From positions 3,552,001-3,616,000 of the forward strand of contig CM000154.2 of NCBI GenBank assembly GCA_000004695.1: DNA of 64,000 nucleotides. Direction: 5' to 3'. Positions 11,996 through 58,997 of this stretch are shown piece by piece. The stretch comes from Dictyostelium discoideum (Eukaryota). Under the pieces are notes generated by a model. That model did not search any database. It was not told the origin of the DNA and saw only the letters and a program-made list of their open reading frames with translations. The translations under genes and the position numbers were made by a program. Each line of letters begins with the position of its first letter. Within the stretch, counting starts at the first letter, position 1.

Positions 11996-13978
11996 TTAAT
12001 CTTTATTTAATTTATAAACTGTTACAGTATCGGGAATTGGGCCAATTATTAGTTCTTGTTTTTTGTCCCAAATATACAATTTTTTAACACTTTCAGGTAT
12101 AATACTTTTTGTTAAATTTTTATTGAATCCTTCAAATAAACAAACAGTTGTTACACTATAAGGAATTGAATCAATTATTAATTCTTGTTTAATATCACCT
12201 AAACGTAACTCTTTAACACTTTCTGGTATTATACCTTTGGTTAATTTTTGATTGAATCCACCCCATAAAGTAACAGTTGTTACAGTATTAGGAATTGAAT
12301 CAATAATTAATTCTTGTTTTATATCACCTATATACAACTCTTTAACACCTTCTGGTATTATACCTTTGGTTAATTTTTGATTGAATCCATCACATAAAGT
12401 AACAGTTGTTACAGTATTAGGAATTGAATCAATTATTAATTCTTGTTTTATATCATCTATATACAACTCTTTAACACCTTCTGGTATTATACCTTTGGTC
12501 AATTATTAATTCTTGTTTAATATCACCTAAACGTAACTCTTTAACACTTTCTGGTATTATACCTTTGGTTAATTTTTGATTGAATCCACCCCATAAAGTA
12601 ACAGTTGTTACAGTATTAGGAATTGAATCAATAATTAATTCTTGTTTTATATCACATATATGTAACTCTTTAACACCTTCAGGTATTATACCTTTGGTCA
12701 ATTTTTGATTGAATCCATCCAATAACTTAACAGTTGTTACAGTATTAGGAATTGAATCAATTATTAATTCTTGTTTTATATCATCTATATACAACTCTTT
12801 AACACCTTCTGGTATTATACCTTTGGTTAATTTTTGATTGAATCCATCCCATAACCAAACAGTTGTTACAGTATTAGGAATTGAATCAATAATTAATTCT
12901 TGTTTTATATTACCTAAACGTAACTCTTTAACACTTTCTGGTATTATACCTTTGGTCAATTTTTGATTGAATCCATCCAATAACTTAACAGTTGTTACAG
13001 TATTAGGAATTGAATCAATTATTAATTCTTGTTTTATATCACATATATGTAACTCTTTAACACCTTCAGGTATTATACCTTTGGTCAATTTTTGATTGAA
13101 TCCATCCAATAACTTAACAGTTGTTACAGTATTAGGAATTGAATCAATAATTAATTCTTGTTTTATATCACATATATGTAACTCTTTAACACCTTCTGGT
13201 ATTATACCTTTGGTTAATTTTTGATTGAATCCATCCAATAACCAAATAGTTGTTACAGTATTAGGAATTGAATCAATAGTTAATTCTTGTTTTATATTAC
13301 CCAAACGTAACTCTTTAATTCCTTCTGGTATTATACCTTTGGTTAATTTTTGATTGAATCCATCAAGAAGCAAAACATTTTTTGGTAATATTTTTAATTT
13401 TGATATGATATTACAATTATCTTTTAATGCGAAATTACTGTAACCTTCAAGCTTAAAAATTGATTCATCACCTGAAAATATATAAAATTTATATCCATCC
13501 ACTAAAATTAATAAATGTAAAGAATTAGTATTTTATTAGAGGCACCTATTAGTTTTTAATTTAGGCTCTTTTACTTACTTTCTATAAATTTATTTTCATT
13601 ATTTTCATTATTTTCATTATTTTCTTGAATTTGATTATTTTTAGTTGAATTAAATAATGAGTTTGTTGTTGTCGTTAAATAAGAAGAGGAAGAAAGAGGA
13701 GGATTAACTGGTAAAACAACATCTTTAACATGATTCAAAGTTGTAAATAAAGGATATAAACTACAAAATACATTACGAGAAGTACATCGTTTACAACATG
13801 GTATTAATTCACAATCCAAACAAAAATTTATTAAATTATCATTTGGATGAAGTGTGCATTTATTATTTTTATTATTTTTATTATTATTATTAATATTATT
13901 ATTGATTTTTATAATTTGATTTTCGTCACTGACGATCATTTTAGAAATTTTTGGTTTACTAAAAAAAATAAATACCAA
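11996..13978 (-). CDS. B-box zinc finger + FNIP-repeat protein (copy A), exons 13978..13579 and 13501..11996; the second exon carries a 59-nt repeat-unit deletion near 12471..12502 that shifts the frame (possible pseudogene or assembly collapse)
   Basis: Exon 1 has a B-box-like motif CTLHPNDNLINFCLDCELIPCCKRC and ends ...ENKFIES(K). A phase-1 GTAAGT...TTTTAG intron is placed identically to the one in copy B. Exon 2 is made of 44-aa FNIP repeats ([44 protein letters not shown]). At 12480..12500 one 132-nt repeat unit is truncated by 59 nt, splitting the frame into ORFs 12471..13502 and 11996..12502. Confidence 0.55.
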
Positions 13979-36987: not shown

Positions 36988-39900
36988 TTAATTTTTATTC
37001 ATTTCAGCCATTTTTCTATTCACAGAATCTACGAATTTCTTTTGTTTGTTCTTTTTAATGATTATATAAATAACACCAATAATTATTACAGCAGCGAAAG
37101 CGATTGAACCAACAATAATACCAGCTAATTGAGCAGTTGTTAAACCAGAATTACTTTTTGTACAAACTGAGTTATCTTCATCAGAGGCTGATTTGCTATC
37201 GATAAGCACTGAGAAATCTGGATCAACTATTATTGAGTTTCTATAATTTGGAATTGTAATACCAATAAATGATTGTAATGATGATGATGAACTATCAATT
37301 ACATTTAATGATGAATCTAATAAAACATTACTTATACTTTTAACAGTATTATCAATAATAGCACGTTTAATGAATCTACCATAAAGTGAATGATTTTCAA
37401 TTTGAATCTTTAAATAATTTGAATCATCACCTGTTGATGTATTACCAAATTGATTTGATGTGCAAATATCATTTGAGTTTGTTGTTAATGATGCTTCCAT
37501 TACTAATTGAAGTTGATTTAATGAACTTTTAAATTGATATTCTGTAATTTCAATTGTATATTTAATACTAGATGGATTCATTGTTAAATTTTGATTTGCG
37601 AATTGAATTGGTGTACTTTGATTAAACCATTCTAAAGTTGCTGTTATATTTGTATTTGATACTGTTGTAAAGTACTGATTTTTAAATTCGTTAATTGGTG
37701 TATATATCCATTGATCGAATTTATAATTATTTACTTCTTTATTATTAAAATCTAATTCTCTTAATGATACTAATGATATTAATGATTTAAATATCATTTT
37801 TTGAGATTCTTCACTATTTGTTTCTGATGATTGACCATTATTATCTGTTGGTATTTCAACATCTGGTTTTGTTGTATTAATTGATGGTTGTGGTACAATA
37901 ATAATTTGAGAAGTACAAGTTACTCCAATCCATGGTGAATAACAAATACAACCTGTTGATGAACAATAACCTTGATTTTTACCACCACATTCTGGATTAC
38001 CTAGACATTTTTGTGGTGGATTGGTTGGAATTGGTGTTATTGTTGGTATTGGTGTTGTGGTTGGTATTGGTGTTGGAGTTGGTATTATAGTAGAATTAAA
38101 ATAAACTGGATTAACAATAAATTCATTTGATATGAAACCATCAATTGTTAAAGCTTTAATATAGAATGGGCTCTTAGTATTTTTAATTCTTCCCACTCTA
38201 ATTGCTGATGATCCATGAATTAACATTAAACTTGCTGAATTTGGCGTCAAACTACTATCGCTGTAAACAAAATCAATTCTGGAAACTTTTGAAAAACCTC
38301 TACCATATATAACCAATTCACCATTATCATCTGAATAATATCGATCTGTTGATTTGATTACTGGTTGGTTAATTGTAAATGTTGTATTAATATAATAGTT
38401 TGAGAGTGGTACTCTTTGAATATCATCACTTGAATAACCATAATAATAACCACCATTATTTACAATACCATATACTGAAAATATTAAAGCATTTGGGAAA
38501 CCAAAACCCAATGGTAATTCAGTTGCACAGGAATAAGAAACATTTGTTATATTATACGATACTAATTTTGATTTACATTCTACCAATCCATTAAATAATG
38601 AAGTTATATAAATTATTGGTAATTGATCGATTTTAATAATCGGTACACCACTATCAATTGAAAAATCAAATGAAATGGTTCTATTGGTCGCACCTACATC
38701 AATGGTTGTTGCTGATGTTGTAAATGATAATAATGTTGGTTTTATATTTTCTATTACTTGTAATATTGAACATGTAAATGGTAAAACTGTAATACCAATA
38801 CCTCTTTCTAAGAAATTAATAAATGGATTAATTATTGAAGCAGTAAGTAATGAAGGTGTATATAAATTAAATCTTGAAGCTATTTTATTTGTATCAAACA
38901 ATATAACTCTAACGATTCTATATTCTTGTGATATACATGGTTGAGTAATATTAATTAAAATTTGATATTGGCAATTGAATTTATCACCAATTACATCATC
39001 GATTGTAAAATTGAAATGATAAGTTGAACTATCAATTGAACCCATTACTTTAATATAACCACTTTCAAACCCATTTAAATCATCTGTAATATTAAATTTC
39101 CAACCAATTGTACCTGTTGTTGAAATTACTAAACCATTTCCAATTTTTTCAAAAGAACTAAAAATTGGACCTTGATTGTCAAGTTCTATAATTTATAAAA
39201 AAAGAAATTAGTTTTTTTTTTTTTATGATTATTTAATTTTTTCATTCAAATAAATAATTACCAGTCTTATCTACAAAGAGTTCATTAACTATATCAGTAC
39301 TATAAAATCCTGATTCTGGTGAATGTTCAATCATATATTGAATATTTCCAAACATATTATTCTTTGGTAATATGAATTTACATTCAAATATTCCTGTGCT
39401 GGCATTGTAAATGAATGGATTTCTATATAACATATTGGCAACATCAGTCATATCTCTTTCTATTGGAAATGATATTATATCCAATAAAACAAGTGCCATT
39501 GTTTTATATGGTGGAATATCGCTTGAATTTACATACAAAATATTATAAGAATCTTCCTCTAAGCTTAAATTATTCTTTAAAAATCTAATATTATTGTTTT
39601 GAAAATTTGAAATATTTAATTCTAAATTATTATTTTAAAATAAAGGAAAGTATTCATTAGTTAAAGTAAAATTATTTTATTTAATAAAAAAAAAAAATCA
39701 AAAAATCAATATTTAATATAATACATACTATAACTTATTTCTTGTGGTAATTGGAATATAACTAATGGATCTATTGAAACTATATCACCTGGATTATAAA
39801 TAGAACTATAACCATATAAATCAAACATTATAACATATTTTACACCATGAAAACCTGTAATTAATTCAAATGTACCATTGTAAATTGTGCCACTAACTAA

Positions 39901-43857: not shown

Positions 43858-46560
43858 TTATTTATTATTATTCAATTTATTCAATTTATTATTGATTGAC
43901 ATTTCGAATTTCTTTTGTTTTTTGCTTTTTGTGATAGCATAGACAGTAGCGATAACTATTACAGCAGCGAAAGCGATTGAACCAACAATAATACCAGCTA
44001 ATTGAGCAGTTGTTAAACCAGAATTATTTTTTGTACAAACTGAATCATCTTCATCAGAGGCTGATTTACTATCGATAAGTACTGAGAAATCTGGATCAAC
44101 AACTATTGAGTTTTTATAATTTGGAATTGTAATACCAATAAATGATTGTAATGATGATGATGAACTATCAATTACATTTAATGATGAATCTAATAAAACA
44201 TTGCTTATACTTTTAACAGTATTATCAATAATAGCACGTTTAATGAATCTACCGTAAAGTGAATGATTTTCAATTTGAATCTTTAAATAATTTGAATCAT
44301 CACCTGTTGATGTATTGCCAAATTGGTTTAATGTGCAAATATCATTTGAGTTTGTTGTTAATGATGCTGCCATTACTAATTGAAGTTGATTTAATGAACT
44401 TTTAAATTGATATTCTGTAATTTCAATTGTATATTTAATACTTGACGGATTCATTGTTAAATTTTGATTTGCAAATTGAATTGGAGTACTTTGATTAAAC
44501 CATTCTAAAGTTGCTGTTATATTTGTATTTGATACTGTTGTAAAGTATTGATTTTTAAATTCGTTAATTGGTGTATATATCCATTGATCGAATTTATAAT
44601 TATTTACTTCTTTATTATTAAAATCTAATTCTCTTAATGATACTAATGATATTAATGATTTAAATATCATTTTTTGAGATTCTTCACTATTTGTTTCTGA
44701 TGATTGACCAATATTATCTGTTGGTATTTCAACATTTGGGTTTGTTGTATTAATTGATGGTTGTGGTACAATAATAATTTGAGAAGTACAAGTTGTTCCA
44801 ATCCAAGGTGAATAACAGATACAACCTGTTGGTGAACAAAAACCTTGAGTTTTACCACCACATTCTGGATTACCAAGACATTTTTGTGGTGGGTTGGTTG
44901 GAATTGGTGTTGTTGTAGGTATTGGTGTTGTGGTTGGTGTTGTGGTTGTGGTTGGTGTTGGTGAAGGAGATTCAGTAGGTGTTGGTGGGATAGTTGCATT
45001 AAAATAAATTGGATTAACAGTATATATGTTTGATGTTAATGTATCACTTGTTGAAAATGTAATATCAAAAGGTTTATTAGTTGATTTAATTCCAGATATT
45101 TTAATTGCTGATGATTCATAAACTACTAAAGGTGGGAATGAATGAGGTGCTAATGTACCATCTCTATAAACAATATTAACTTGAATAACATTTGAAAAAC
45201 CTCTACCATATAGAACCAAATCATTATCATCTGAATAAAATCTATCAGTTGATTTAATAGTAGGTTGATTAAATGAGTATGTAGTATTTGCGTAATAACC
45301 AGAAGTAACTGTAGATAAATCCTTTGGAGTATAACCATAAAAGTAACCACCATTATTTACAATACCATATATTGAAAAAATCAATTGATTTGGATAACCA
45401 AAGCCAATTGGTAATTCTGTTGAACATTTATAAACAACCTCAACATTATTATATGATATTAATATTGTATCTCTACATTCAACTAAACCAGAAAATAATG
45501 AATTTATATAAACAATTGGTAATTGATCTTGTTTTATTGTAGATGTACTTGTACCAAATGAAAAATCAAATGAGATTGTTCTATTTGTTGCACCTACGTC
45601 AATGACTGATGTTGATGGTGTAAATGATAATAAGCTTGGTTTTGAATCTACTAATGTTGAATCTGAGCATTCAAATGGTACAATTGTAATATCAATACCT
45701 TTATTTAATAAATTGAGGAATGGATTAAGTATTGCTGCGTTTGCAAGTATAGGTGTATATAAATAAAATCTTGAAGCTATTTTATTTGTATCAAATAATA
45801 TAACCTTAATAATTCTATATTCTTGTGATATACATGGTTGAGTAATATTAATTAAAATTTGATATTGGCAATTGAATTTATCACCAATTACATCATCAAT
45901 TGTAAAATTGAAATGATAAGTTGAACTATCAATCGAACCCATTACTTTAATATAACCACTTTCAAACCCATTTAAATCATCTGTAATATTAAATCTCCAG
46001 CCAATTGTACCTGTTGTTGAAATTATTGAACCATTTCCAATTTTTTCAAATGAACTAAATAATGGACCTTGATTATCAAGTACTATAATTTACAATAACA
46101 AAAAATTAGTTTCTTTTTTTTTTATTATTAGATATATTAAAAAAATTATTATTAAAAAGGTAAAAACTTACTTGTATTATTTGCAATTAAAGGTTCAATT
46201 AATTCATTACTATGTATACCCAATAGATTTCCATAGAATACTGTATATAGAATTTTTCCAAACATATTATTCTTTGGTACAATGAATTTGCATTCATACT
46301 TTTTAGTTTGAGCATTGTATTTAAATGGAAGCTTAACAATCATTCCATCGGAATCACTACTATCTCTTTCAACTGGGAATGAAATAATATCAATTAATAA
46401 TAAAGATAATGATTTTTTAATTGGAACATAATCATTAAAATCAATATACATAATATTATAAGAATTATCTGTCAAATCTAAATTATTCTTTAAAAATGTT
46501 ATGTTAAAGTTTGTAATATTTAATACTAAAATTAAAAAATTAATAATTAATAAATGACAT

Positions 46561-48601: not shown

Positions 48602-49277
48602 TTTTTAGATTTTTAAATTATAATAATTAATTAAAATGATTAATAAAAAAAAAAATAAAAAAAGAAAAGTTTTTTTTTTTTATGTTTTTTTATGTTTTTT
48701 ATGTTTTTTTTTTTTTTTTTATGTTTTTTTTTTTTTTTAATCGTTGTGACGTGATATTTAAGATATTTTGCTATGGTAATAATTTTTTTAATACACACGA
48801 AACAATAAATATCTTTTTTTTTTTTTTTTTTTTTTTTTTTTGATTTTTTTTTTTTTTTTGATTTTTTCATTATCAATTTTTTTTTTTTTTTTGGTTGATT
48901 TCCCAATCTATAAAATGGAATCGTGATTTCCAAAAATATCTTTAAAAACCATTTCTTTAATTATTTTTTAATTTGAATTTTTATTTTTTTTTAAGATATT
49001 TTTAAGAATTCTTTTATTCTTTTAAAATTTTTTTTTATATTTCCATATTTTATAAATATATAAATTAATTTATATTTTAATATAAAAAATATTAAAATAT
49101 TAAAATATTAAAATATTAAAATTAAAATATTGAAATATTAAAATTAAAAAATTAAAAATTAAATTAAAAATTAAATAAAAAAATTGTTTTTGGTTATTTG
49201 AAATCTTTTTAGATATTTTTTTTTTTTATGATGGTGAGAAAAAAAAAAACAAAAACGCTGTGATGTTCTTGATATTT

Positions 49278-49310
<33 letters not shown>

Positions 49311-49420
49311 TTTAAATTAAGCTTTTTTAATAAAAATAATTATTGTCAAATTATGTTCCCATAAATAATATTAAAAATTTAATTATTTTTGATAAAAAAA
49401 AAGGAAATAAACATATGATT

Positions 49421-49583
49421 AAGGGCTTCTTACCGCAAATAACAATCAAATTAGGTATAGAATAGGTGGGAGACGCAAGTCGATAGTGAAATACCACCAC
49501 TAAAGTGATTCGGGGTGGACTGAAAAGTCCCGTACTATTGCATTACAGCCCCCTTCCTTAAATGGAAGTTCTTCTAAGCCCTG
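49421..49583 (+). ncRNA. Candidate structured non-coding RNA (about 160 nt), GC-richer island closed by a terminal stem; class unknown
   Basis: The 5' end AAGGGCTT (49421..49428) pairs with the 3' end AAGCCCT (49576..49582). Inside are three hairpins: GGTGG-N24-CCACC (49466..49500), CGGG-N14-CCCG (49511..49532) and CTTCC-N6-GGAAG (49552..49567). Local G+C is about 45% against an AT-rich flank. There is no ORF, and the strand is uncertain. Confidence 0.3.
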
Positions 49584-49687
49584 TTTTTATTTTTATTTTT
49601 TTTTATTTTTATTTTTTTTTTTTATATTTTATATAAATATACATATTTTTATTTATTTTATTTTATTTGAATTTAATTTATTTGGTT

Positions 49688-49996
49688 TTATTTATTTGTA
49701 TTTATTTTTTTTAAAATTTTTTGAATATATAAAAAAGTAGAATTTTGATATTTTAAATTTTCTTTATCATTGTTTGGGAAAGTGATTGATTTAATTTCCA
49801 TTAATTCAGAAGTTGAAATTGATATTAAATTATTTCTAAAAAAATATTTAATAATCTCTAAATAATTAAATTTTAAACAAACTTTAATTAAACTCCAATC
49901 AACTGATGGGAAATTTTCCTTATAATTATCAAATATGAATTTAATAACTTTTAAATTTCCAAATTGAACAGATTCTTTAATAATTATTTCTAATAA

Positions 49997-50052
<56 letters not shown>

Positions 50053-51884
50053 AATTATGTTGAAGATATTTTTTAATGAAATTTAAATCACCATTTTTTA
50101 AAGATAACCATAATACAGATTTCAATTGTGATGAATTATTATCATTATTATTATTATTTAATGAATCTATATAATCTTGTAATTTACCAACACAATATTT
50201 TAATAAGTTTAAAGTATCAGTTGGAAGTGAAAACTTATTAATATTGATTAATATCCAATGGAATAGTTTTAAAATTATTCGATTAAATGGTAAATCATTT
50301 ATAGATGGTGGTAAAAATGAATATTTCTTATTTGTTGGATAATTTTCTATAACAAATTTAAAATTTTCAAAATCTGTTTCAGTAATTTCATCATTAAAAT
50401 AAATATATATAATTTCATTTTCATTTAGCATTATTGTTTCTTTTTCACTATATTTATCATTATTAACTGTTGTTGATGTTGCTTCTGTTGTTTCTGCTGT
50501 TTCTGTTGGTGTTGGTGTTGTTGGTGTTGTTGGTGTTGTTTCTGTTGTTGGTGTTGGTGTAGTTGTTGATATTGGTTCAATTTCTTTTTCAATTTGATAA
50601 ATATTTGGATTTTCAATAATACGTTTGACATTTTTTAAATTAATAATATCAATTTCAGGTTCTATTGAAGTTGCTAATAAATTATTTTGTCTAATTAATT
50701 GTTCACATTTTTCTAATAATGGGATATTTGATTTTGATTGAATTTCATCTAAATCCAAGATACCTTTTCTACCTTCAATATTTAAAGCATAAATATAATC
50801 TAAAACTATTGGTGATTCTACAAATGAATAGATATTATTAAATCTTTCTACAATAAATGATAATACACCAAATCTATTATCTATACCAGTAGTGGAATAT
50901 TCATTTTCATCATTATTTAAATAATCTTCATCTTCATTTTCATTATTATTATTATTATCATCTTCACTAATATTATCATCTACTTTTCTTCTTTTTGTTT
51001 GTCTTTTAAATTTTCTACAATAGTTTACTTTAATTTTCAATTTATCAGATGCCATCTTTATTAAATCTATTTGATCATATTCAACAATTAAACAAAATAA
51101 AATCCATGGATCAATTAATGAACATTCAGACATTTTTGATATGAAATTCTTTTTTCTAGTTTTATCATTAATACAGTTTTCAAATAAAAATGATTTTGGT
51201 TGTTGTTGTTGTTGTTGTTGTTGTTCTTTTATCAGCTTTTGTTTTTTTTGATAATAATAAAATTCTTGTAATAAAAACCTCATTGGATTGGTTTCTGGTA
51301 TTGAATGATCAATATATTTTAACATTAAAATTAACATTTCATAATTTCCAAATTTAAATGCATCAATTAAGCTCATACCACTAAAATTTAAATTTACACT
51401 TGTTGGTGGTGCTCCAAATTTACAATAATAAACTAAACTTTTATGTTCCGATAATGCTACTGATAAAGATTGTTGTTGTTGCTGTTGTTGTTGCTGTGAT
51501 TTACTTTTATCTAGTAAATTTGATTCTGGATGCATACAATTATATGCTGTACCACTACTAATGATATAATAAAATTCTAATAATTTTTTAAATTTTAAAT
51601 TTGATGAATCGAAAAGTTGTAATGGTGTTTCTAATTCTTGTTGGCTAAAATTCATTACATTAATTTGTTTCTCTACTAGATATTGATTTGTTGATAGTGA
51701 TGTTATATTATTACTATTATTATTAATAGTTGGTGTTGTTGATGATTTTTTATATAATTTTAATTTGTTAAATATTAATGCTGATGTTATTAATGTTTTT
51801 AATTTAATATTTAATTTTATTGGACATTCTCTAAAAAGTGTAAATGTAATTTGTTTTTTAAAATCTTTAATACTATTTTGATTT

Positions 51885-58141: not shown

Positions 58142-58997
58142 TTATATGTTTACTATTTTGACATTTTCAGGAACGAAGGGATTAATTATTTTTTTACAAC
58201 TTTTATAAATATGGACATTGCTTAATGTGTTAGGAATTGAATCAATAATTAAATCTTGTTTTATATCACCTATATGCAAATCTTTAATGGTATCAGGTAT
58301 TATACCTTTGGTTAGTTTTTGATTGAATCCATCACATAAAGTAACAGTTGTTACAGTATTAGGAATTGAACCGATTATTAATTCTTGTTTTATATCACCC
58401 AAATACAACACTTTAACACCTTCTGGTATAGTACCTTTGGTTAATTTTTGATTGAATCCATCCCATAAAGTAACAGCTGTTACAGTATTAGGAATTGAAT
58501 CAATTATTAATTCTTGTTTTATATTACCTAAACGTAACACTTTAACACTTTCTGGTATTATATCTTTGGTTAATTTTTGATTGAATCCATCCAAAAAGCC
58601 AACATTTGTTACAGTATTAGGAATTGAATCAATAATTAATTCTTGTTTTATATCACCTATACACAACTCTTNNNNNNNNNNNNNNNNNNNNNNNNNNNNN
58701 NNNNNNNNNNNNNNNNNNNNNNNNNNNNNNNNNNNNNNNNNNNNNNNNNNNNNNNNNNNNNNNNNNNNNNNTATCATTTTGTGATTGAATTTGTTTGAAA
58801 GTATCATTTGATTCTTTTAACAATATTTGATCATTTTCTTTTCTTTCAATTAATTTTAGATAAATATTTTTATTAAAATCATTAATTAATGAAAGAATAT
58901 TTGATTCTGATGATTCTAATGAATCAGTTTTATGACCATGATGTTCACCCTTACTGGAAATACAAAGACTGCAACACGGAATTAATTTACACTCCAA
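58142..58997 (-). pseudogene. B-box/FNIP family copy C, 5'-truncated (lacks the first half of the B-box) and interrupted by a 100-N assembly gap
   Basis: ORF 58653..58997 begins inside the B-box ([23 protein letters not shown]...). ORF 58142..58807 carries four FNIP repeats and the family C-terminus (...VPENVKIVNI). Confidence 0.5.
58672..58771. other. Assembly gap (100 N)
   Basis: Seen directly. Confidence 1.

Follow-up and report, generated by a model that had tools for sequence, protein, structure and literature searches.

A G+C-rich island on the forward strand of a 64,000-nucleotide stretch of Dictyostelium discoideum DNA (hereafter the window) is probably an independent Class I RNA gene: an unlisted, extra-long (~162 nt) paralogue of DdR-66 and DdR-67, which bear a copy of the L1 stalk of large-subunit (LSU) ribosomal RNA. 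Judging from its sequence, we put the probability of this identity at roughly 0.8; the figure refers to what the gene is and not to how its product might act, and its expression is a prediction. Class I RNAs, which occur only in dictyostelids as discrete, mainly cytoplasmic small RNAs, are abundant and developmentally regulated, and they are implicated in early multicellular development. The locus would be a new member of this already known class, and covariance-model screening geared to ~60-nt RNAs would pass it over; the Class I family may be larger and more varied than listed. An earlier note on this DNA had proposed a small structured non-coding RNA on the + strand, possibly of another Dictyostelium small RNA class, and the Class I signature and homology to DdR-66/67 described here agree with it.

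Composition and coding potential

The island (49421-49584, + strand) is 44% G+C and lies amid DNA of 14-17% G+C. Measured over 49423-49584, its G+C is 0.44, compared with 0.14 and 0.17 in the two 1-kb flanks and 0.215 in the 64-kb window, and it stands at the 99.8th percentile among 160-nt windows of the stretch. The 13 other segments with G+C of at least 0.38 each overlap a frame that stays free of stops for 80 codons or more, so the earlier observation that nothing of like composition occurs elsewhere in the intergenic DNA holds, and no other G+C-rich segment of the window lacks an open reading frame. Stop codons in six of six frames confirm that it has no coding potential, and the view that it is not a tRNA is borne out by ARAGORN, which finds no tRNA or tmRNA gene in the whole window.

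The neighbouring genes are lineage-specific (ComC/DUF7034, B-box and FNIP-like). A search for an orthologous locus via the adjoining 1092-aa ORF found none, whether by exact look-up, by full-length homology search or with a 221-aa piece free of low complexity. Scanning metagenomes with a 28-mer from the L1 arm gave no exact matches, and a motif-plus-L1 pattern returned three loci, none of them a Class I relative (one, L003, is a bacterial 23S-type sequence). The island sequence had no matches as a text string in the literature and none in the supplement of a D. discoideum rRNA methylation paper.

Promoter, transcript ends and terminal stem

The hallmarks of Class I genes are a DUSE, an AAG/G start, a short 5'/3' stem, an 11-nt motif immediately behind the 5' strand of that stem, a CUGU end and a T-run (PMC7919456). 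The DUSE at its proper distance, the AAG and CUGU ends, the terminal stem and the 11-nt motif all occur at the locus, in the following arrangement:

49357..49364, + strand: DUSE promoter motif TCCCATAA, its end 58 nt upstream of G49423, where the RNA would start
49421..49584, + strand: predicted mature Class I-type RNA of about 161-164 nt, with an AAG start (or G49423) and a CUGU end
49423..49428, + strand: 5' strand of the terminal stem P1, GGGCUU, with six standard pairs to 49576-49581; identical in DdR-66 and DdR-67
49428..49438, + strand: Class I 11-nt motif UCUUACCGCAA, 10/11 identical to the family variant UCUUACAGCAA, with one A-to-C change
49576..49584, + strand: 3' strand of P1, AAGCCC, overlapping the CUGU end (49581-49584), whose C pairs with the 5' G
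49584..49612, + strand: T-run (TTTTT A TTTTT A TTTTTTTTT...), by its sequence a Pol III-type terminator signal

The published classifier accepts a DUSE ([AT]CCCA[CT]AA) that lies 56-64 nt upstream either of the start or of a TGTG box, and TCCCATAA is the top-scoring DUSE variant in the published table, with a FIMO score of 13.88 (PMC7919456). A check for an upstream DUSE had been suggested in the earlier note; the motif is present, and its 58-nt distance, measured as in the published script, falls within the accepted range. There is no strong TGTG box at the locus. The window contains four DUSE matches, and this is the sole intergenic one; those at 12847, 47437 and 58461 lie in coding repeats and have no G+C island downstream. 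From the rate in shuffled sequence, the chance of a DUSE on the right strand within the 9-nt window is ~7e-4.

The ends of the RNA are predicted by family rules, not mapped. A G start is usual in D. discoideum Class I RNAs (PMC7919456), and position 1 of our covariance model R1 (see below) aligns exactly at 49423. T-runs are ubiquitous in this genome, so the one downstream is weak evidence.

The complementary ends reported earlier, AAGGGCTT (49421-49428) and AAGCCCTG (49576-49583), do face each other, with six Watson-Crick pairs from G49423-C49581 to U49428-A49576 plus a possible A49422-U49582. Pairing of the 5' G with the C of the CUGU end is a Class I rule (PMC7919456). In the D. purpureum relatives introduced below, P1 is GGAUUC/GAAUCC, which means that compensatory changes separate the species at pairs 3, 4 and 6; the P1 pairs were counted directly by script, and a MAFFT alignment of the joined ends misregistered two D. 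purpureum sequences. The candidate's P1 is perfect, whereas that of DdR-67, an expressed gene, has one mismatch.

Closing stems can have other origins. A miniature transposable element, for example, could mimic one with its short terminal inverted repeats, and the ends here would supply 7-8 nt of these. However, the locus is single-copy in the 64 kb (by R1 and motif scans for a Class I-type locus with an L1 stalk), its flanks (ATGATT before, TTTTTA after) hold no target-site duplication, and the 'inverted repeat' is a covarying Class I stem, so the chance of such an element is negligible.

A snoRNA-like RNA had been offered as one possibility, and a closed terminal stem would suit a box C/D or H/ACA snoRNA as well as a vault- or Y-type Pol III RNA with a panhandle stem. 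There is an AUGAUUA just upstream (49415-49421) and an internal CUGA (49520-49523). However, that sole CUGA (49520-23) sits in a hairpin loop, the 3' end is CUGU and not CUGA (AAGCCCUGU), no ACA is found 3 nt from that end, and no Rfam family, snoRNAs included, matches at gathering or relaxed thresholds. The snoRNA suggestion is not supported, since the 3' end has neither a D box nor an ACA box. Vaults and a homologue of TEP1 are present in Dictyostelium, for which a 2026 vault paper names TEP1 and PARPs and no vault RNA; the candidate contains no box B-like GGTTCGANNCC, and nothing ties the locus to vaults. Since kinship with Class I (by R1) accounts for the locus in full, we consider this whole group of alternatives highly improbable.

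The 11-nt motif, searched with up to one mismatch, has a single match in the 64 kb, which is this one. It begins at nucleotide 6 of the candidate RNA, as recorded for DdR-66 and DdR-67. Every position that is invariant in our own 26-sequence alignment is retained, and the A-to-C change falls where other species vary between A and U.

Relationship to DdR-66, DdR-67 and the D. purpureum RNAs

Sequences of the relatives were taken from the supplementary code files of Kjellin et al. 2021, Genome Res 31:436 (PMC7919456). The L1-stalk insert of the candidate is also present in the published Class I RNAs DdR-66, DdR-67 and D. purpureum DpuR-27 to -30. We built a covariance model, R1, from DdR-66, DdR-67 and DpuR-27/28/29, leaving the candidate out. 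It has one real match in the window, 49423-49505, which is full length (model 1-82) and scores 78.7 bits (E 1.8e-13). The order and spacing of the 5' stem strand, motif, A/U-rich linker and L1 module are the same in the candidate and this subfamily. On its sequence, we regard the candidate as an unambiguous homologue of the curated DdR-66 and DdR-67.

The likeness extends beyond the region covered by R1. The relatives share the same promoter element at a spacing of 56-58 nt, and they also have the A/U-rich linker, the L1 module, a 3' hairpin and a ...CCCUG(U) end. The GGGCUU 5' strand is shared with DdR-66 and DdR-67, whose motif at nucleotide 6 is the variant UCUUACAGCAA, from which the candidate differs by one change. 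The candidate is longer, at 161 nt in the relatives' register compared with 98-141, and includes an extra 41-nt domain, P3 (49512-49552). DdR-66 and DdR-67 lie ~400 bp apart on one chromosome, whereas the candidate lies at another locus, with only one copy in the window.

Canonical Class I RNAs (DdR-21 and others, 42-65 nt) resemble the candidate in their DUSE at ~60 nt, stem, motif, ends and T-run, but the candidate is ~3 times their length, and its interior is structured and derives from rRNA. [quoted passage not shown] Length is typical of Class I without strictly defining it, because the curated family includes members of 98-141 nt.

The candidate sequence is in neither the curated list nor any supplementary file of the 2021 survey (PMC7919456). 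For comparison we rebuilt a canonical model, R2, from 26 Class I sequences; it is our own and not the authors' model. R2 gives no match at the locus at E up to 10, so the blindness of a canonical covariance model to this locus can explain its absence from the published list. The best R2 match, 51233-51278 (- strand), is inside an ORF without a DUSE and is a false positive. The published cut-offs are a covariance-model score of at least 15 bits and a classifier score of at least 32 (PMC7919456); given any covariance-model score of at least 15, the candidate's classifier score would be at least 33.9.

Alternatively, the locus could be a duplicated DdR-66/67-type gene that has fallen silent or is decaying, having kept its signatures but lost transcription or function. 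Its absence from the 2021 list and files fits this, as do the substitution in the 11-nt motif, the extra 41-nt P3 insertion relative to the relatives, and the existence of several classifier-positive loci without reads: DdR-57, DdR-64 and r54 have a good DUSE at the right distance yet zero reads (PMC7919456). However, the candidate has the best-scoring DUSE variant at an accepted distance, a perfect terminal stem (better than that of the expressed DdR-67), intact invariant motif positions and both T-loops, and its absence from the list is explained by screening with a model that does not see it. A silent duplicate is therefore unlikely, and an independent Class I gene is the reading that we carry forward.

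DdR-66 and DdR-67 are validated by RNA-seq coverage, with DdR-66 rising from ~95 reads at 0 h to ~790 at 8 h (PMC7919456). Read counts of the L1-bearing relatives are roughly 1000-fold below those of abundant Class I members (PMC7919456).

The L1-stalk module

The central part of the candidate carries the following features:

49444..49510, + strand: L1 arm, a base helix AAUCA/UGAUU (49444-48 with 49506-10) bearing the L1-stalk module; from a constrained fold, the base helix being a prediction from the single sequence only
49451..49503, + strand: copy of the LSU rRNA L1 stalk (helices 76-78), from Rfam, covariation and T-loops
49451-55 with 49499-503, + strand: outer stem
49456-64, + strand: loop A UAUAGAAUA (9 nt)
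49465-69 with 49494-98, + strand: helix 77, GGUGG/CCACC
49472-81, + strand: helix 78 hairpin, GAC-GCAA-GUC
49482-93, + strand: loop B GAUAGUGAAAUA (12 nt)

The earlier note had seen the hairpins and the ends, both of which stand, but it had overlooked the L1-stalk copy and the defining Class I stem. It had also suggested an Rfam search, and the outcome depends on how much sequence is searched. With the whole window and gathering thresholds there is no match, and a relaxed search of 49300-49700 returns only A/T-driven noise and misses the L1 stalk. When 71 nt are searched alone, and only then, 49451-49503 aligns to positions 2454-2506 of LSU_rRNA_eukarya with 36.3 bits, E 5.4e-8 and no penalised pair; scaled to the whole window, this E value becomes roughly 5e-5.

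Comparison among relatives supports the same structure. The L1 covariation set is a small sample of eight sequences: six Class I modules, the D. discoideum 26S rRNA and the Rfam consensus. In it, 89.4% of cells pair under the L1 fold, a level reached by 0/500 shuffles and compared with 37-64% in slid controls, and 7/13 pairs show double changes. Judged by published definitions (PMC3664808), the two T-loops, AGAA(U)A and UGAAA, are both complete. Conservation is greatest in their unpaired cores: invariant columns make up 6/9 and 7/12 of the T-loop loops but 0/4 of the helix 78 loop. The candidate's identity to 26S rRNA follows this pattern, at 30/33 in the core and 11/20 in the stem and loop (Fisher p = 0.005). 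None of the six family members has lost either T-loop or A2169, and the platform residue equivalent to G2112 is A in the candidate, as it is in DpuR-28.

The candidate module and the rRNA L1 stalk are alike in secondary structure, in the 9- and 12-nt loops, in the GGUGG/CCACC helix 77, in the GA linker, in both T-loops and in having a short, eukaryote-type helix 78. The differences are that the candidate module is free-standing in a small RNA and not within 26S rRNA, that its helix 78 and outer-stem sequences differ from those of D. discoideum 26S with compensation, that the base of its outer stem is G.A instead of G-C and that residue 2112 is A.

Dictyostelium chromosomes carry rDNA-derived pieces, which, with the 53 nt that match LSU rRNA, raises the question of whether the island is an inert fragment of rDNA (or another rRNA source) in intergenic DNA, with promoter-like and stem features arising by coincidence. 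But the rRNA match is confined to 49451-49503: the universal flanks GACCCUGUUGAGCUUGAC (upstream) and GGGGAGUUUGGCUGGGGCGG (downstream) are missing, and the 3' half of the island has no Rfam match. Furthermore, the stems differ from D. discoideum 26S with compensation, and the same Class I frame surrounds the module in five published expressed or curated genes. From the covariation and the R1 match, we consider the rDNA-fragment reading effectively refuted.

In the searchable literature, we found no paper pairing 'Class I RNA' with 'L1 stalk', so the presence of a conserved, covarying L1-stalk copy with a double T-loop head in some published Class I RNAs is apparently undescribed.

Possible function

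The L1-stalk surface stacks on the tRNA elbow in the ribosome. The L1-stalk copy provides the first concrete binding hypothesis for these Class I members, with uL1, the tRNA elbow or L1-stalk-binding factors as candidate ligands; uL1 or tRNA-elbow binding is inferred from resemblance only.

A mechanism can be proposed as follows. The RNA would start at AAG/G49423 and end in CUGU before the T-run, with its ends pairing into the 6-bp Class I stem. This stem and the single-stranded motif would form the common Class I 'handle', which the RRM protein Rnp1A is reported to bind in another Class I RNA. The L1 arm would offer, off the ribosome, a surface normally bound by ribosomal protein uL1 (Rpl10a). 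As a cytoplasmic decoy or adaptor, the RNA could then capture free uL1 and tie a Class I RNP to the translation machinery. If the RNA is functional, we regard such a uL1 role as a reasonable possibility, short of an even chance. More broadly, and only tentatively, the subfamily (this locus, DdR-66/67 and DpuR-27 to -30) may consist of free-standing cytoplasmic L1-stalk copies, selected since before the split of D. discoideum and D. purpureum, with a trans-acting role, as decoy or adaptor, towards uL1, deacylated tRNA elbows or other L1-stalk ligands.

There is a precedent in prokaryotes. L1 sites in bacterial and archaeal mRNAs mimic the L1 binding site of 23S rRNA and can titrate free L1 (as in the L1/L11 operon). 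The likeness is by analogy, in that both would work as off-ribosome copies of an L1 site. The mRNA sites are cis-acting partial copies, whereas the candidate would be a trans-acting eukaryotic small RNA with the whole double T-loop head, and no regulatory link between the candidate and the uL1 gene is known. To our knowledge, mimicry of the L1 stalk by a trans-acting small RNA has not been described in any eukaryote.

Alternatively, the L1 arm of a functional RNA could be a tRNA-elbow docking module, comparable to the T-box stem I apex or the RNase P specificity domain, and not a uL1 site. Both T-loops and A2169 persist in six of six family members, and other Class I RNAs carry tRNA T-arm-like hairpins (PMC7919456), which hint at a link between the family and tRNA. 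The candidate is related directly, by sequence, to the L1 stalk of rRNA; the T-box and RNase P modules are without helix 78 and are not rRNA sequence homologues. The A at the residue 2112 equivalent in the candidate and DpuR-28, in place of G, could weaken elbow stacking; moreover, stacking is weak unless a second contact adds specificity, and the candidate shows no sign of such a contact or of any anticodon- or acceptor-reading element. Given a functional RNA, elbow docking would come next after uL1 capture but is doubtful, and as an account of the locus in place of a uL1 site it is rather unlikely.

If the subfamily does act through its L1-stalk copies, eukaryotes would have, in trans-acting form, an equivalent of the L1 mimics in bacterial and archaeal mRNAs, and an RNA class implicated in early multicellular development would be linked to translation control or ribosome assembly. 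If the L1 hypothesis fails, the locus would be a routine addition to a known gene family.

Other hairpins and folding energy

All three clean hairpins described earlier are present: GAC-GCAA-GUC at 49472-49481, which is helix 78, GGACU-GAAA-AGUCC at 49517-49530 and CUUCC-UUAAAU-GGAAG at 49553-49568. The latter two belong to the 3' half of the island, where folding gives two features:

49512..49552, + strand: P3 domain, a GGGGU/GCCCC stem with the hairpin GGACU-GAAA-AGUCC (49517-49530) and a 17-nt unpaired loop
49553..49568, + strand: P4 hairpin, CUUCC-UUAAAU-GGAAG

P3 is not found in DdR-66, DdR-67 or DpuR-27 to -30 and has no Rfam match. P4 has a likely counterpart in the DdR-66 hairpin CUUCU-GAAA-AGAAG, which has the same CUUC...GAAG stem at the same position relative to the 3' end; this homology was inferred by eye. 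Resemblances to the RNase P/MRP CR-I element (GAAAAGUCCCG) and the SRP Alu domain were dropped, the hairpin concerned being self-contained and without an Rfam match.

The + strand folds at -44.5 kcal/mol (z = -2.3), with 5/200 shuffles as good, and the - strand gives z = -1.1. This is only modestly better than chance and would not settle RNA status alone, which is why we decided that question by sequence and structure signatures. The minimum free energy (MFE) structure pairs UCUUACC of the 11-nt motif with GGUGGGA of the L1 strand, at -43.0 kcal/mol compared with -39.7 kcal/mol for the L1 fold, so the motif is paired in the MFE structure but free in the L1-constrained one. A second copy of the motif core, UUACAGC, lies at 49543-49549 in the loop of P3.

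A G+C-rich, non-coding island with paired ends

At a G+C of 0.215 the window as a whole is extremely rich in A/T, and its genes are of Dictyostelium type. The candidate (49421-49584, + strand) is a G+C-rich island, with G+C of 0.44 for 49423-49584 vs 0.14 and 0.17 in the adjoining kilobases. Across the whole window, 14 segments of 160 nt reach a G+C of at least 0.38, and all but the candidate overlap a stop-free frame of at least 80 codons. No open frame runs through it, as stops interrupt all six, and its complementary termini (AAGGGCTT and AAGCCCTG) enclose three clean hairpins. An earlier note, made from the sequence alone, had described the island as G+C-rich, closed by paired ends around three hairpins, unique in composition among the window's intergenic DNA and non-coding, all of which we recovered. 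Folding energy by itself does not stand out (+ strand, z = -2.3; - strand, z = -1.1), and the case for function is built on other signals.

Just upstream lies a tandem ComC-family surface-protein gene pair: two paralogous - strand ORFs (36988-39045, 685 aa; 43858-45942, 694 aa) with identical domain order (DUF7035 / DUF7034 / DUF7949 / ComC supersandwich). An imperfect A/T microsatellite of ~90 nt (49085-49175; units such as TATTAAAA and ATTAAAA; G+C down to 0.02) sits ~200 nt upstream of the intergenic promoter element listed below.

Class I gene signals

[quoted passage not shown] 2021, PMC7919456; Sucgang et al. 2011, PMC3188802). The candidate starts AAG-GGCUU and ends AAGCC-CUGU, with six standard terminal pairs. 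TTTTT follows directly, a weak gene signal in an A/T-rich genome.

Gene signals at the candidate
49357-49364 (+), DUSE, TCCCATAA, intergenic match
49428-49438 (+), Class I 11-nt motif, UCUUACCGCAA

All four DUSE matches in the window are on the + strand, three within coding repeats and one intergenic. The latter, the upstream DUSE that the earlier note had proposed to look for, is the best-scoring variant of the published table. The published Class I classifier script counts bases from the DUSE end to the RNA's first G and accepts 56-64; by this measure the distance is 58. From the shuffle rate, the chance of a DUSE on the correct strand in a 9-nt window is ~7e-4. TCCCATAA also occurs at 12847 and 58461, within ~120-nt FNIP-repeat-like coding tandem repeats (12800-13100 and 58420-58670); we rejected both as promoters, as they are chance matches in ORFs with no G+C island downstream. 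A run of N from 58673 onward, an assembly gap, breaks one of these FNIP-repeat-like genes.

UCUUACCGCAA is the sole motif match at up to one mismatch in the 64 kb and starts at nucleotide 6 of the candidate, the same place as the published UCUUACAGCAA in DdR-66 and DdR-67. In an alignment with canonical Class I RNAs (26 sequences, six species), it retains all invariant and near-invariant positions, and its one change falls at an A/U-variable position. In the terminal stem (P1), pairs 3, 4 and 6 differ with compensation between D. discoideum and D. purpureum members. A miniature transposon could also have paired ends, but this is unlikely: there is one copy only in the 64 kb, and the "inverted repeat" covaries.

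An L1-stalk copy in the interior

The interior segment GGUAUAGAAUAGGUGGGAG...GUGAAAUACCACC was spotted by eye as L1-stalk-like and then confirmed with Rfam: 49451-49503 matches LSU_rRNA_eukarya 2454-2506 end to end (36.3 bits, E 5.4e-8, zero penalised pairs). This match emerged from a search with the isolated segment and was filtered out of a larger relaxed search. Residues are defined as in Lehmann et al. 2013 (PMC3664808).

L1-stalk elements in the candidate (+ strand)
Helix 76 9-nt loop: present; T-loop 1 is AGAA plus an extra U, then A
Helix 77: present, GGUGG/CCACC, with GA linker
Helix 78: short, GCAA tetraloop closure
12-nt loop: present; T-loop 2 is UGAAA

Platform residue A2169 is retained, and its partner 2112 is A, not G. 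Rfam searches found no rRNA likeness beyond these 53 nt, and the module lacks the universal segments that border the stalk in the 26S gene of D. discoideum.

Published relatives and covariation

Six curated Class I RNAs of Kjellin et al. (supplementary code, PMC7919456) share this build.

Published L1-stalk-bearing Class I RNAs
DdR-66: 141 nt, D. discoideum
DdR-67: 104 nt, D. discoideum
DpuR-27, -28, -29, -30: 98-118 nt, D. purpureum

In each, the Class I stem and motif are followed by an A/U-rich linker, the L1-stalk module and a closing strand with CUG, in most cases preceded by a 3' hairpin. The candidate, DdR-66 and DdR-67 have the GGGCUU strand and motif variant in common. That the locus is a silent duplicate is an unlikely but possible reading.

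A covariance model built from the 5' parts of five distinct relatives (DdR-66/67 and DpuR-27/28/29), with the candidate excluded, gave a single real match in the window, at 49423-49505, spanning the whole model (78.7 bits, E 1.8e-13). Compensatory changes, which the earlier note had suggested seeking in orthologous regions, were found among the L1 modules of the family: in an alignment of the six Class I modules, the Rfam consensus and the 26S rRNA of D. discoideum, 89.4% of cells were paired and 7/13 pairs had changed on both sides (e.g., GGUGG/CCACC vs GCUGG/CCAGC in DpuR-27). None of 500 shuffles reached these values, and slid controls were 37-64% paired. This covariation and the five-relative match contradict the view that the island is an inert rDNA fragment.

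Conservation is higher in the unpaired T-loop cores than in the hairpin loop of helix 78. Against 26S rRNA, the candidate's core is identical at 30/33 positions vs 11/20 for the outer stem and helix 78 (Fisher p = 0.005), a pattern that fits an old capture whose L1 tertiary core has been kept by selection and not a recent rDNA insertion.

At the sequence level, these comparisons establish a Class I-type gene architecture and an L1-stalk module under structural constraint. We judge the finding genuine and the candidate a new and unusually long representative of an established class of dictyostelid RNAs; the earlier reading as a small structured ncRNA was correct in outline. The defining features of snoRNAs, tRNAs and vault/Y-type RNAs fail in the candidate; with no Rfam snoRNA match, the suggested snoRNA-like identity is not supported, and the view that it is not a tRNA stands. 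What is added is the recognition of a conserved L1-stalk copy in the candidate and its published relatives, a resemblance of which we found no mention in the literature searched.

Predicted structure and an alternative fold

With P1 and L1 pairs enforced, the predicted fold is a multi-arm junction (-39.7 kcal/mol).

Features of the constrained fold (+ strand)
49423-49428 with 49576-49581, P1, enforced
49429-49443, motif and linker, unpaired
49444-49510, L1 arm, lengthened by AAUCA/UGAUU
49512-49552, P3, GGGGU/GCCCC stem around GGACU-GAAA-AGUCC and a 17-nt loop
49553-49568, P4, hairpin

The unconstrained minimum (-43.0 kcal/mol) instead pairs motif UCUUACC (49429-49436) with L1 strand GGUGGGA (49467-49473) over 7 bp, two of them G-U, and the motif's A-to-C change adds one more G-C pair. 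We favour the L1 fold because nearest-neighbour energies ignore T-loop tertiary contacts. A switch between the two is possible, in which the alternative would mask the motif along with the L1 fold.

P4 and the hairpin of DdR-66 correspond in stem and position. P3 is missing from DdR-66/67 and DpuR-27 to -30. The predicted unpaired 17-nt P3 loop holds a second motif core, UUACAGC (49543-49549; chance roughly ~0.01, a post hoc estimate). The canonical copy at 49428-49438, unlike this core, bears the A-to-C change.

Why the locus appears to have gone unlisted

The candidate is apparently absent from published Class I lists. Among the entries listed, its diagnostic strings occur in 0/57 supplementary files, including curated FASTA and cmsearch outputs (PMC7919456); no listed table row of that supplement has a length of 160-163 nt; and in the score table for D. 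discoideum, TCCCATAA and a distance of 58 do not occur together in any unnamed candidate listed (PMC7919456). Lengths of the 40 loci published before that survey all fall within 32-94 nt (PMC7919456). We attribute this to the screening method, because a canonical Class I model is blind to the locus: our rebuild from 26 Class I RNAs, with filters off, did not report it at E up to 10. The authors' own search gave DdR-66 20.7 bits and DdR-67 17.9 bits (PMC7919456).

The top canonical-model match was 51233-51278 (- strand; 19.9 bits, E 0.01), which we rejected as a false positive (inside a 1092-aa ORF, G+C 0.17, on a strand without DUSE). Metagenome contig Ga0222742_1015399 (L003, 958-1075) was picked up by the family pattern because of a chance UUACCGCAA ~45 nt upstream of its stalk; it is a bacterial 23S-type L1 stalk region and was rejected as a relative.

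Proposed function

Class I RNAs reside mostly in the cytoplasm; Rnp1A binds one of them, and early development is disturbed when DdR-21 is lost (PMC7919456). Expression of DdR-66 and DdR-67 is low, with DdR-66 up about eight-fold by 8 h (PMC7919456). The candidate's L1 arm would display the surface that binds uL1 on the ribosome, where the same surface stacks on the E-site tRNA elbow. If the RNA is functional, a uL1 decoy or adaptor is the most likely mechanism, at a probability of about 0.35. Docking to the tRNA elbow ranks second and is improbable, being mildly disfavoured because of the G2112A change.

The variable regions of the published Class I RNAs asu_can_20, ppa_can_99 and DpuR-22 (PMC7919456) contain hairpins that fit the tRNA T-arm / box B consensus, with sequences GGUUCGAUCC, GGUUCGAAUCC and GGGGUUCGAAUCCCC. 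Together with the L1-stalk members, these T-arm hairpins suggest that the Class I frame repeatedly houses modules derived from the translation apparatus.
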